A DNA stretch of 64,000 nucleotides from an uncultured Lachnospiraceae bacterium (GCA_964567585.1 CAZMND010000002.1:7592-71591); one strand, 5' to 3'; positions 4,155 to 7,918 are shown, counted from the stretch's first letter. Notes: generated by a model from the letters alone, not told the origin. Made by a program: numbers and translations.

Positions 4155-5480
4155 ATGAGTACATTTGTTGAAGGTTTAGTTAATTCAAAGCTTCGTAATA
4201 TGAAGGAAATGAAAAACGTATACGAAGTCGGACACGTAACAAAAGTAAAAGATTATATTCTCGAAGTTACGGGATTGGAATCCGTAGGATTCTATGAAAG
4301 AGTTGTTATCTCCAATTATTCGGTTGGTTATGTTACAGCTATCAAGAAAAATTCAGTAATGGTAGCTGTATTACAGAGAGCAAACGTAATATATGTTGGA
4401 GATGAAGTAGTTACAACAGGTTTTGATTTCTGTGCTATGTACAGTAGAGCGTCAATTGGTCACATTATCGATATTTTCGGTAACGACAGACTATTGGATG
4501 AAAAATTTGAGAACTTAAAACCACTTAGCATTGAAACAAATCCAATTCCGATTATGGAAAGAGGTCCTGTAAAGAGACCGTTCTATACAGGTATTGCGGG
4601 TATTGATCTTGTATATCCGATTGGGTATGGACAGCGTCAGTTGATTATCGGTGATAAAAAATCCGGTAAAACACAGATTGCATTGGATACTATCGTAAAC
4701 CAGAAAGATAAGAACGTAATTTGTATTTACGTGGCAATTAATAAAACAAAGAAAAATATTAAAGAATTATACGATATGCTTATGAAAAAGGGTGCTATGG
4801 AATATACCTTGATTGTTGCATCCTTTAGTGAAGATGAACCACCGGTAGCATACTTTACACCATATATGGCGATGTCGGTTGCAGAGCTCTATATGAGAGA
4901 AGGACAGGATGTTTTGGTTATCCTCGACGATTTAAAACATCATGCCAATATCCATCGTGAAATCAGTTTGCTGACAGGAAAAATTCCGGGTCGTGATGCA
5001 TATCCGTCCGATATATTCTACACACATTCCAGATTGTTGGAAAAAGGTTGTCAGCATAAAGACGGCGGTTCCATTACGGTACTTCCGATTGTTGAAACAA
5101 AGGGTGGAGATATTACAGACTATATTTCTACAAACATTATTTCCATCACGGACGGACAGTTGGTTCTTTCCAGAAAGAACTTTGAAAAAGGCCAGAAACC
5201 GGCTATTGACTATACCTTAAGTGTATCCCGTCTGGGTGGTGCGGTACAGGATAAGGATATGAAAGCTCTTGGTGCAAAGGTACGTCAGAGATTCTTATCA
5301 TACTTAGAAACAAGAGAAGTTTATGAACTTGCAAACACAGATGAAATGAGTTTTGAAATGCAGGCGAAATTGGAAGAAGGACGAAGAATTGAAGAAAGAC
5401 TTCTTCAGTACAAATTTTCTCCAAGAAACAAAAATGAAATTATTCATATATTTGAAGAAGCATTAGAGGACGAAAAATGA
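4155..5480 (+). CDS. F1 ATPase alpha-subunit-like protein, 441 aa (C-terminal helical domain about 55 aa shorter than canonical)
   Basis: P-loop GDKKSGKT (canonical GDRQTGKT) at 4650-4673. Also VICIYVAI, ILDDLKHHA, PGRDAYPSDIFYTHSRLLE, ISITDGQLVL and LSVSRLGGAVQ (canonical SVSRVGGAAQ, the Arg-finger region). Confidence 0.9.
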   Translation: MSTFVEGLVNSKLRNMKEMKNVYEVGHVTKVKDYILEVTGLESVGFYERVVISNYSVGYVTAIKKNSVMVAVLQRANVIYVGDEVVTTGFDFCAMYSRASIGHIIDIFGNDRLLDEKFENLKPLSIETNPIPIMERGPVKRPFYTGIAGIDLVYPIGYGQRQLIIGDKKSGKTQIALDTIVNQKDKNVICIYVAINKTKKNIKELYDMLMKKGAMEYTLIVASFSEDEPPVAYFTPYMAMSVAELYMREGQDVLVILDDLKHHANIHREISLLTGKIPGRDAYPSDIFYTHSRLLEKGCQHKDGGSITVLPIVETKGGDITDYISTNIISITDGQLVLSRKNFEKGQKPAIDYTLSVSRLGGAVQDKDMKALGAKVRQRFLSYLETREVYELANTDEMSFEMQAKLEEGRRIEERLLQYKFSPRNKNEIIHIFEEALEDEK

Positions 5481-6259
5481 AACTAAAAAATGTAGTAAAG
5501 GTTATGAATTTTCATTCTCTGCTTCGTGTAGACAAGTCCAGAAAATCAGCTAAAAAGTATGCTTATCTGGATAGTACCGTAGCGGAAATGATTGATAATA
5601 TTGTGAATAACAGAAATATTATGCTGGACTACAAATTTTTCCGTGTAGATGAAAAAAAACCGGTTTTAAATATTTACCTTGGTGGTGATTTGGGATTTTG
5701 TGCCAACTTAAACTCAAATATTACAAAGTGTGCATTGGAAGATGTGGATGATTATAAAATTATTATCGGACGAAAAGTCCACGCGGGAAGATATGATGAC
5801 AAGGTCCTTTTGAACCTGAGCCGCGAAGAATACGTGGAAGATGGAAGCAAGGTGCTTGAAATCTTAGAAGATGCTTTTTATAACAAGAAATATTCAAAAA
5901 TCAATTTGATTTATAATCACTATTATAATGCCACGGAATTGGAATTTATGAAAAAACAATTATTTCCGATGCCAAAACATTTATTTAGCGACAGTGACCA
6001 TACGGAAGATTTTGCTTACGAGGGAGATATTGAACAGATTTTGACAAATCTGGTTATGTTATATTTCAAATATCAGCTCGCTATTGCTGTTGAAGTAAGT
6101 AGTGCGGCATTAAACATTACGAGACAGAATTCAACCAGTGAATCGCTGAAGAAAATTGATGAACGTGAAGAAGCATATAAGATGACTCAAATTCGAGAAA
6201 ATAAAGAGAAAGAGTTTAACAAGGTATTGGATAATTATACTAAGTTAAATCATTATTAG
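5477..6259 (+). CDS. F1 ATPase gamma-subunit-like protein, 260 aa
   Basis: ATGA overlap with the alpha stop. [19 protein letters not shown] matches the canonical TSDRGLCG-x-x-N-x-N motif. There is a C-terminal long-helix region ([19 protein letters not shown]...). It occupies the atpG position. Confidence 0.75.
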
Positions 6260-6267
6260 GAGGGCAT

Positions 6268-7635
6268 ATGGAAGTCTGCGTTGGTAAAATACTGACAATA
6301 TCAGAATTGAATGTTCAGATTTTGTTAAATGGTGAAAAAGTAAAATACCATGATATTTTGTTTACAAACATAAAAGGAAAAGAAATCCAGTTTGAAGTAA
6401 CAGAAGAAGATGGCAACATTGTATCTGCAGTACCTTTCCAGAGTGTTATCGGACTCAAGAAAGGTCTTGAAGTATATAAAAAAGATGCATCATTAAAAAT
6501 GCAATATAATGATGAAATATTAGGAAAAGTATTCGATGCATACGGTCATACAATTGATGGTTCGACTATCAATGAAGTAAAAGAAAAAGATGTTTACGGC
6601 CGTAACTTAAGCATGGAAGAAATCAATGTAAACGGTGCGATTTTATGGACAGGTATCAAAGTTTTGGACTTTTTTGCACCAATGAGAAAAGGCTTTAAAA
6701 TGGGTCTTTTAGGTGGTGCCGGTGTAGGTAAAACCGTACTTATCAAAGAATTAATCCACAACGTTTATCAGGGATTCCAGTCCAACTCCGTATTTGTAGG
6801 TGTTGGTGAACGTTCCCGTGAAGGTTTGGAATTGTATGAAGAAATGAGAGATGCCAACCTTCTTGATAAAATGTCAATTGTATTTGGTCAGATGGGCGAA
6901 AACTCAGCAGCAAGATCAAAAGCAATTTATTCGGGACTTACGGCTGCAGAATATTTACGTGATGAAAAAGGACAGGATGTATTGCTTTTTGTAGATAATA
7001 TTTACCGTTTCGTACAGGCTACTTCAGAACTTAACTCTGAATTGTCACGTGTACCGATTGAAAACGGTTATCCGGCAAACATTGAATCACTCGTTGCGTC
7101 TGTGGAAGAAAGAATTAATTCAACAGGAAAAGGTTCTATTACATCTTTCCAGGCAATTTATATTCCGGCGGATGATATTACAGATGAAGCGGTTCAGGTT
7201 ATTTCATCACATCTTGATGGTCAGATTGTACTGGATAGAAAGGTTGCAGAAAAAGGTCTCTATCCGGCAGTGGATGTATTCTCTACACAGAGTAAATTAA
7301 TTGATATTGAGCATGTGGGTGAAAGACATTATCGTCTGGTTGAAGAAGTTTTAAGATATTATTCAAGATACCGTGATTTGGAAGAAATTATTGCAGTACT
7401 TGGTATTGAAGAATTATCACTGGCTGACAGAAGAATTTTCTATCGTACAAGAAAACTTCGTAACTATTTTACACAGCCGATGTTTGTTGCGGAAAACTTC
7501 ACAGGTATTCCGGGCGAATTTGTGGAAATAGACGATATTTTGGACGATGTGGAAAACATCTTAAACGGAACATATGACGATCTTGACGAAAGTAAATTTT
7601 TATATATAGGAAAATATAATGGAACGCAAAATTAA
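6268..7635 (+). CDS. F1 ATPase beta-subunit-like catalytic protein, 455 aa
   Basis: RBS AGGAGG. Walker A GGAGVGKT at 6712-6735. GVGERSREG (catalytic Glu), Walker [27 protein letters not shown]. The DELSEED loop reads EELSLAD. Confidence 0.95.
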
Positions 7636-7918
7636 AGCAAAAATTGTTAGTATGGAATATGGATTACAGGAGTATGAAGAAATCGAAATGATCCGCGTAA
7701 AGGGCGAGAATCATAGTTTGCTTATTCTGCAAAACTATATGCCTCTTCTTGGCCGGTTGGATGGTTATGTGGATTTGATTTTGAAAGATGTTACTCTGAG
7801 AATTCAGGATGTACAGGGATATTATATGCATAAACAGAATGAGTTCAGCCTTTTGGTCGAAAAGGGCGATACAAAGCCTGTTTCCTTTATTGAGGAGGAA
7901 GATAACGATGCTGGATAG
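7619..7918 (+). CDS. F1 ATPase epsilon-subunit-like protein, N-terminal beta-sandwich only (99 aa)
   Basis: 17-nt overlap with the beta gene. [25 protein letters not shown] matches the epsilon motif G-x-x-G-I-L-P-x-H-x-P-L-h-x-x-L. It occupies the atpC position and is too short to include the two C-terminal helices. Confidence 0.7.

Follow-up and report, generated by a model that had tools for sequence, protein, structure and literature searches.

The window analysed here is a stretch of 64,000 nucleotides from an uncultured Lachnospiraceae bacterium (GCA_964567585.1, CAZMND010000002.1:7592-71591), and the region in question, positions 4155-7918, codes for alpha-, gamma-, beta- and epsilon-like subunits of an F1-type ATPase. 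We conclude that this region is probably the catalytic part of an eleven-gene operon encoding a non-chemiosmotic derivative of the F1Fo ATPase, and we favour the view that this derivative would be a rotary enzyme running only in the direction of hydrolysis and powering a machine at the cell surface. An earlier reading of the same DNA, made from sequence alone (hereafter the sequence-only reading), had proposed an F1 adapted to hydrolyse ATP rather than to make it. This proposal was supported, chiefly through the c-like subunit, the absent a subunit and the operon of surface genes. The conclusion that the enzyme is restricted to hydrolysis was drawn because the carboxylate of the c subunit is absent in all 49 homologues examined, because no a subunit is detectable, and because the operon is conserved together with genes for surface proteins. 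The genes of the operon, with coordinates counted from the first letter of the window, are as follows (aa, amino acids; TM, transmembrane).

9..1457 (+), upstream giant surface protein, C-terminal 482 aa; runs off the start of the window
1472..3055 (+), 527-aa single-pass membrane protein with a collagen-like (GGX)n run at about aa 236-300 and a C-terminal ectodomain, as read from the translation
3073..3318 (+), c-like subunit, 81 aa; helical hairpin, match to PF00137
3343..4152 (+), putative b-delta fusion of the peripheral stalk, 269 aa; from AlphaFold2 and Foldseek
4155..5480 (+), alpha-like subunit, 441 aa; PF00006, 241.7 bits
5477..6259 (+), gamma-like subunit, 260 aa; PF00231, 84.8 bits; overlaps the stop codon of alpha at its start (ATGA)
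6268..7635 (+), beta-like catalytic subunit, 455 aa; PF00006, 217.2 bits
7619..7918 (+), epsilon-like subunit, 99 aa; from AlphaFold2 and Foldseek
7908..8438 (+), 5-TM membrane protein, about 176 aa; start at 7908 picked from the family alignment
8435..9184 (+), 249-aa single-pass membrane protein with an ectodomain; a conserved part of the module
9181..19611 (+), giant surface protein of 3,476 aa whose two ends carry hydrophobic segments, as read from the translation; start overlaps the stop of the preceding gene

The genes are co-directional and tightly packed, with start and stop codons overlapping at five junctions in the window. Pfam recognised alpha and beta as ATP-synt_ab, the 260-aa protein as ATP-synt (gamma) and the 81-aa protein as ATP-synt_C, and it gave no match for the 269-aa, 99-aa, 176-aa, 249-aa and giant proteins of the window. 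A scan for promoters and terminators found sites no more often than in shuffled sequence, and inside the cluster no terminator on the plus strand was convincing; this result is compatible with one operon and otherwise uninformative.

Membrane ring, peripheral stalk and the absent a subunit

The 81-aa c-like protein matched PF00137 at 35.2 bits against a cut-off of 24, and it scored under the cut-off for all NCBIfam c models. Its hairpin keeps the GxGxGxG packing motif and, in 49/49 homologues, the loop GRNPE. The polar loop is kept, and in F1Fo the equivalent loop touches gamma and epsilon. The second transmembrane helix (TM2) carries neither D nor E in any of the 49 homologues and is entirely hydrophobic, with L, T, V, A or S at the canonical polar positions. 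The best PDB matches obtained with HMMER were c1 and c2 of Acetobacterium woodii, with T61 of the window protein standing opposite the ion-binding Glu of c2.

The 269-aa protein had no sequence match in Pfam, NCBIfam or PDB, and a search of PDB with the family profile returned noise (annexin, coiled coils). It also has no relative on plasmids or phages. Its AlphaFold2 model (predicted local distance difference test, pLDDT, 81.5) consists of an N-terminal TM helix continuing into an 80-residue helix (residues 2-81), a disordered linker (84-102) and a helical-plus-beta, delta/OSCP-like domain (104-261). When this model was submitted to Foldseek, 37 of the 38 best matches, all but that at rank 20, were F-ATPase delta/OSCP subunits, including the mycobacterial b-delta fusion. 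The best E-value was 2e-3 with a probability of 1.0, and template-modelling (TM) scores were only 0.27-0.40. On these modest scores and this nearly exclusive ranking, the predicted structure suggests that the protein is a b-delta fusion forming the peripheral stalk.

No match to subunit a (ATP-synt_A, PF00119) was found among the open reading frames (ORFs) of the cluster. Directly after epsilon lies the gene for a protein with five predicted TM helices, and this position is conserved, the Bacilli clade included. The 5-TM protein was considered as a divergent a subunit and rejected: ATP-synt_A matched 0 of 24 family members, and PDB yielded no match. Alignment of the family by hhalign to the a subunit of Escherichia coli, whose sequence was entered by hand, gave a probability of 0.1. 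The family has no invariant or near-invariant residue. We regard the 5-TM protein as a candidate membrane stator, standing in for subunit a but unrelated to it. The 249-aa family that follows has no PDB or Pfam match, and homologues of the window protein occupy the same position in 41 loci.

Catalytic head and central stalk

The catalytic signatures of beta and the Arg-finger block of alpha, which the sequence-only reading had described as intact, were all found in the places expected. In beta these are GGAGVGKT (residues 149-156), GVGERSREG (178-186) and two further ten-residue motifs (239-248 and 298-307), so that the protein carries Walker A, the catalytic GERxxE block, Walker B and YxPADD; matches to beta chains in PDB were at 1e-113. 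In alpha, the Arg finger lies in LSVSRLGGAVQ (355-365), and the divergent P-loop GDKKSGKT, also pointed out earlier, was confirmed at 166-173. This altered P-loop lies in the non-catalytic site. Together, alpha and beta have every catalytic residue, so the ATP-splitting sites look intact as judged from their motifs.

The trimming of the other elements proposed from sequence likewise held in most respects. The count of 76 residues after the Arg-finger block of alpha proved exact; canonical alphas scoring above the atpA cut-off have 129-134 at this point, and mycoplasma Type 2/3 alphas 160-183. In the PDB alignment, alpha residues 5-423 pair with residues 8-427 of the 502 in Bacillus PS3 alpha. 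The window protein thus ends about 57 residues before the C-terminus of PS3 alpha, its C-terminal helical domain being some 55-60 aa shorter; the N-terminal stretch, to which delta binds in F1Fo, is retained, since residue 5 pairs with PS3 residue 8. The gamma subunit had been said to lack about 15 N-terminal residues, and we find about 11-14 absent: residue 3 pairs with residue 14-17 in solved gamma structures and, on the PF00231 profile (84.8 bits against a cut-off of 39.9; gamma 3-237 on profile 15-262), with position 15. A longer gamma ORF is impossible because the called ORF begins at the first start codon after a stop. The beta sequence EELSLAD (381-387), equivalent to the DELSEED loop and listed among the departures from canonical form, is present in the window protein but is not a trait of the family; 14 of 52 relatives read EELSEED, and we therefore treat it as a species-level variant. 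All the other listed traits are family-wide among the 52 relatives, with GDKK[ST]GKT in 49 and LSVSRLGGAVQ in 47, and with median lengths of 441 aa for alpha, 262 aa for gamma and 94 aa for epsilon.

The epsilon-like protein escaped every sequence method: Pfam gave nothing, NCBIfam only matches with E = 0.04-0.1, and the family profile had no match in PDB, while hhalign against E. coli epsilon (its sequence entered by hand) returned a probability of 0.2. The AlphaFold2 model (pLDDT 91.4) is all-beta over residues 5-90 and disordered at 95-99. The best 50 Foldseek matches to it were all F-ATPase epsilon or mitochondrial delta, headed by an engineered PS3 epsilon without its C-terminal domain (TM scores 0.71/0.80). 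The earlier description of epsilon as a beta-sandwich without the C-terminal helices is thereby confirmed, visible only through structure prediction, and lengths in the family run from 82 to 124 aa. Loss of the epsilon C-terminal domain lifts a brake on hydrolysis; by itself it does not preclude synthesis. With EELSLAD confined to the level of species and the altered P-loop outside the catalytic site, the arguments of the sequence-only reading itself carry less weight than it gave them.

A discrete family in gut Clostridia and Bacilli

A search of 5.8 billion proteins with the window alpha was filled at the top by alphas of about 441 aa at 62-99% identity; their sources, Lachnospiraceae that include Kineothrix alysoides, name them F0F1 alpha. 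A look-up for the exact sequence of the window alpha found no record. Against representatives clustered at 50% identity, the score dropped from 478 bits (51% identity) to 368, the value of a 438-aa variant, and ordinary alphas followed at about 310. Scanning one genome per species yielded 54 loci, drawn from Lachnospiraceae, Peptococcia, Oscillospiraceae, Erysipelotrichaceae and small-genome 'Bacilli'/'Tenericutes' gut metagenome-assembled genomes (MAGs). In all, the family occurs in 50 or more species of several classes, with identities of 56-99% for alpha and 58-99% for the c-like protein.

The window alpha, beta, gamma and c all fall under the curated cut-offs for canonical F1Fo, N-ATPase and mycoplasma Type 2 and Type 3 enzymes. 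For the canonical enzyme, alpha scored 372.5 against 484.45 for atpA (TIGR00962), on which canonical representatives reach 520-687, and 425.6 against 554 for PRK13343; beta scored 448.1 against 462.85 for atpD (TIGR01039). In a rough neighbour-joining tree, the family and the 438-aa variant formed their own clade in 92 of 100 bootstraps and were joined to the mycoplasma types in 18 of 100. These comparisons support the view that the family is discrete and paralogous to the housekeeping F1, and that it is apparently not the ATP synthase of the cell. The sequence-only reading had allowed that the short subunits might be normal for the housekeeping F1 of the lineage. The lengths are normal only for a separate, paralogous family, and this objection does not apply because the family lies under the atpA and atpD cut-offs and is divided from canonical alphas by a sharp gap in score.

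Several individual records deserve mention. A contig titled 'Thermoguttaceae bacterium LCP21S3_D1' (JBQKHF010000004.1, locus L038), a planctomycete name, carries the cluster with an alpha 92% identical to that of the window, and its gene coordinates and lengths match those of a Roseburia MAG (L003); its label is probably wrong or the assembly contaminated. In CAYWRB01 ('uncultured Hungatella sp.'), copies of alpha at 74-77% identity to the window lie on four contigs (L021, L026, L027 and L051), and either the genome holds several clusters or the bin mixes strains. The sole locus that looks fragmented, L049, is on a complete 1.46-Mb 'Bacilli bacterium' chromosome (CP091726.1), where the cause could be pseudogenisation or frameshift errors of long reads. 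A distant variant around P0128 (L056:53-5969, Logan SRR14630334) has a 438-aa alpha at 43% identity with the Arg-finger block degraded to SSMRTDNIEN, while its beta, epsilon-like protein and gamma are 433, 79 and 230 aa long; a ComGC-like type IV pilin gene follows, and the 56-aa ORF upstream is not c-like in appearance. P0177, a 505-aa alpha-like protein without the N-terminal stretch, is under every named alpha cut-off (best 419 against 554) and may represent another uncharacterised F1-like type. The epsilon-like proteins P0316, P0356 and P0386 (84 aa), annotated as hypothetical proteins, come from 'Bacilli bacterium' gut MAGs, and the cluster of each at 90% identity is found on at least 1,000 contigs, some of 0.9-1.4 Mb, which makes the system very common in gut metagenomes.

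Surface proteins and conserved neighbourhood

The locus of Kineothrix and some 35 more from Clostridia begin with a giant of roughly 2,100 aa and a protein of roughly 530 aa; c, b-delta, alpha, gamma, beta, epsilon and 5-TM come next, and a protein of roughly 245 aa and a giant of 2,000-3,600 aa close the series. Homologues of the upstream giant, 2,010-2,258 aa long, occupy the same position in more than 20 loci and have an N-terminal TM helix and a collagen triple-helix stalk; Pfam places Collagen at about aa 265-325 of those in L017, L002 and L029, and a Big_3_2 domain in that of L017. Matches of the upstream giant to Scl-type collagen-like adhesins were all under cut-off. The counterpart of the 527-aa protein lies directly upstream of the c-like gene in most loci; the window protein has no significant Pfam or NCBIfam family, and tandem repeats were found in its region at window positions 2246-2415. 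In most loci of Lachnospiraceae, Peptococcia and Erysipelotrichaceae, the gene immediately downstream of the module codes for a giant homologous to the 3,476-aa protein. The giant proteins gave no Pfam or NCBIfam family beyond pieces of collagen, Ig or fn3 type in homologues.

The Bacilli clade has the core order c, b-delta, alpha, beta, epsilon, 5-TM and gamma, then a cytoplasmic protein, which is followed by two to four paralogues with SipW signals in 8/8 loci with enough flank. Fibre-type neighbours thus occur in every clade, as collagen-stalk giants, SipW-signal arrays or, in the distant variant, the type IV pilin-like gene. No further alpha- or beta-like gene was found within 10 kb of the cluster in any of the 54 loci.

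Some observations concern the surroundings of these loci. The SipW-dependent-type arrays of Bacilli, in the style of TasA and camelysin, encode proteins of 207-270 aa at L043:15055-17538, and equivalent arrays are present in L039, L040, L042, L044, L045, L049 and L055. In the window itself (1-64000), every credible ORF of at least 150 aa is on the plus strand and GC skew is positive throughout (0.14-0.28), which suggests a single replichore with strong gene-strand bias. Genes for sporulation (YqfD) and PhoH at 23843-26046 mark the chromosome of a spore-forming Firmicute. A 748-aa protein of the sulfatase/LtaS type (19690-21936, +), in which a 'choice-of-anchor Z' repeat is weakly recognisable, is encoded directly 3′ of the giant gene. 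The proteins at 25985-27244, 27742-29370 and 29436-30065 (+; 419, 542 and 209 aa) had no Pfam family.

Proposed mechanism and alternative explanations

In the mechanism that we propose, ATP hydrolysis in beta would turn gamma and epsilon, and the attached c-ring would turn with them because its polar loop is kept. The b-delta stalk would hold alpha3beta3 stationary. A ring that carries no ions would neither be driven by an ion gradient nor be able to build one. Torque, or a cyclic push, would instead pass in the membrane to the 5-TM and single-pass proteins and onward to the collagen-stalked giants, with movement, adhesion cycling, or assembly or remodelling of surface fibres as possible outputs. 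The trimmed epsilon C-terminal domain, gamma tip and alpha C-terminal domain would fit a motor running in the hydrolysis direction only, with no brake and no ion coupling. More tentatively, the system may be a new ATP-driven rotary machine of gut Firmicutes in which the c-ring acts as a mechanical rotor that cranks, spins or assembles surface filaments; these would be the collagen-stalked giants in Lachnospiraceae, SipW-type proteins in gut Bacilli and pilin-like proteins in the distant variant.

Several points weigh against a hydrolysis-only surface motor. The delta assignment of the 269-aa protein stands on a Foldseek ranking with modest scores, and gene linkage is the sole ground for naming the coupling partner. 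A ring lacking ion sites might not rotate and might serve as a static anchor instead. The surface partners vary between clades, and so the output may not be one function. Finally, a canonical F- or V-type ATPase alongside the cluster is presumed from related Lachnospiraceae and from Rnf in Lachnospiraceae bacterium G11, for which the supplement of PMC4478896 shows the presence of Rnf only and not the ATP synthase genes.

The plainest alternative is that the genes encode the housekeeping F1Fo ATP synthase of the lineage, with short subunits as ordinary lineage features. The genes run c, b, alpha, gamma, beta, epsilon as in atpEF(H)AGDC, public records call the alpha 'F0F1 ATP synthase subunit alpha', and subunit lengths are constant within the family. 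We nevertheless judge this explanation very improbable, given that the c-like carboxylate and the a subunit are missing, that the atpA and atpD cut-offs are not reached and that the cluster always sits among surface-protein genes; moreover, all 62 rumen butyrivibrio genomes, also Lachnospiraceae, are reported to encode the eight canonical F0F1 subunits, a and delta included (PMC4478896). A decaying, functionless duplicate of the atp operon might also account for the losses, which comprise the carboxylate, subunit a, the C-terminal domain of epsilon and the C-terminus of alpha. That is hardly credible for intact, translationally coupled ORFs retained in about 50 species of several classes with nearly invariant catalytic motifs, when the epsilon-like proteins of three clusters are each found on at least 1,000 contigs and L049 alone looks fragmented.

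Two further explanations grant the complex a function of another kind. It could be an ion pump with an unconventional path, formed by the c-like ring and the 5-TM protein through residues other than the Glu/Arg pair; ring, stalk and a multi-pass membrane protein are all present, and A. woodii, the source of the closest PDB match, has c subunits with one inactive hairpin. The wholly hydrophobic TM2 and a 5-TM family in which no residue is even nearly invariant leave this improbable. It could alternatively be an ATPase that exports, inserts or assembles the giant or fibre proteins, in the manner of FliI-FliJ-FliH in type III export. Here alpha and beta are homologous to FliI/SctN ATPases at 175-200 bits, each variant has fibre-type substrates linked to it (collagen-stalk giants, paralogues with SipW signals or a pilin-like protein), and the giants have no recognised sorting domains. 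Yet the cluster holds no export-gate-like membrane proteins, its hetero-hexamer, c-ring and b-delta stalk are hallmarks of rotary F-type enzymes rather than of a type III export ATPase, and the FliI-family cut-offs are missed widely: on TIGR01026, alpha scored 175.9 and beta 201.6 against 379.5, and the system has distinct alpha and beta types and a PF00231 gamma. We therefore consider the export explanation unlikely, and we retain the hydrolysis-only rotary derivative as the preferred one.

Significance

If this reading is correct, F1 motors that work without chemiosmosis for surface machines extend beyond mycoplasmas to abundant gut Clostridia and Bacilli. On the more tentative view of the c-ring as a mechanical rotor, the cluster would represent a new prokaryotic surface motor outside mycoplasmas and an extant stage linking F1Fo with the F1-like X0 ATPases of mycoplasmas. 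With ring and stalk retained, the transfer of F1 torque across the membrane to surface proteins would be directly testable in organisms in culture, namely Kineothrix alysoides, Lachnospiraceae bacterium G11 and Candidatus Merdisoma. Because public records name these genes as F0F1 ATP synthase subunits, metabolic reconstructions for bacteria of the gut and rumen would be led astray.

Comparison with known systems

Among canonical F1Fo enzymes, of which those of Bacillus PS3, Caldalkalibacillus thermarum and Fusobacterium nucleatum are the closest solved, the window system shares the gene order, the catalytic residues, gamma, the epsilon beta-sandwich, a c hairpin with glycine motif and polar loop, and a b-delta type of stalk as in mycobacteria. 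Unlike them, it has no c carboxylate, a subunit or epsilon C-terminal domain, its gamma and alpha are trimmed, and it lies in a setting of surface genes. A second divergent F-type operon besides the main enzyme, the N-ATPase, is known from some prokaryotes (PMC3369863). In the window, alpha scored 348.2 against 750.5 (TIGR03324), beta 406.6 against 752 (TIGR03305) and c 15.6 against 130.85 (TIGR03322) on the N-ATPase models. N-ATPases have an ion-binding c, an a subunit, AtpQ and AtpR, in the order beta-epsilon-Q-R-a-c-b-alpha-gamma, and none of these hallmarks is present in the window cluster.

The nearest functional parallel lies in mycoplasmas, whose F1-like X0 ATPases have been stated to be specific to them, with no equivalent in other bacteria (PMC3369863, PMC12994834); our searches of a literature collection for a system of the window type outside mycoplasmas found no description. 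In enzymes of Types 2 and 3, gliding or the MIB-MIP surface system needs ATP hydrolysis (PMC12994834; PMC3369863), and the Type 2 gliding motor is thought to pass force through the membrane to giant surface proteins (PMC12994834). Like the Type 2 G1-ATPase of Mycoplasma mobile (MMOB1660/MMOB1670, PDB 9io5), the window system combines an F1-like hexamer with giant surface proteins, and its alpha and beta match the chains of 9io5 at 2e-76 and 2e-94. It differs in that beta has no N-terminal dimerisation domain (455 aa against 784 aa in 9io5_A), in its other membrane parts, and in the presence of a c-ring and b-delta stalk. On the Type 2 models, scores were 373.4 against 600 (glide_MMOB1660) and 373.2 against 850 (glide_MMOB1670), beta covering positions 241-682 of a 705-position profile.

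Type 3 enzymes (MSC_0618/MSC_0619; MMCAP2_0575-0581) resemble the window system in placing extra F1-like alpha, beta, gamma and epsilon beside membrane proteins of unknown fold and surface proteins, and in that hydrolysis, not synthesis, is proposed for them; their seven or so core genes lie in one operon, and the enzyme is needed for antibody cleavage by MIB-MIP. Type 3 is described as having no b, delta or c homologues and an alpha without the N-terminal helix, and among the products of its seven-gene cluster are a 12-TM protein, a small protein of the cytoplasm and a large one that has two TM helices at its C-terminus (PMC12994834). The window cluster, in contrast, keeps a c-type subunit, the b-delta stalk and the alpha N-terminal stretch, and has 5-TM and single-pass proteins with no 12-TM protein. 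Its alpha is shortened after the Arg finger (76 aa), whereas that of Type 3 is extended (160-163 aa), and its hosts are Clostridia and Bacilli rather than mycoplasmas. Nothing resembling MIB or MIP was noticed among the genes of the cluster, although no search was aimed at MIB-MIP. Scores on the Type 3 models were 315.3 against 520 for alpha (MSC_0619) and 391.5 against 570 for beta (MSC_0618), where true members reach 523-734.

Membership in mycoplasma Type 2 or Type 3 was accordingly rejected on hidden Markov model (HMM) scores, architecture and the tree. The best reading by analogy is that the window system works like the mycoplasma F1-like X0 ATPases but is independent of them: it falls outside both mycoplasma types and retains parts that those types have lost.

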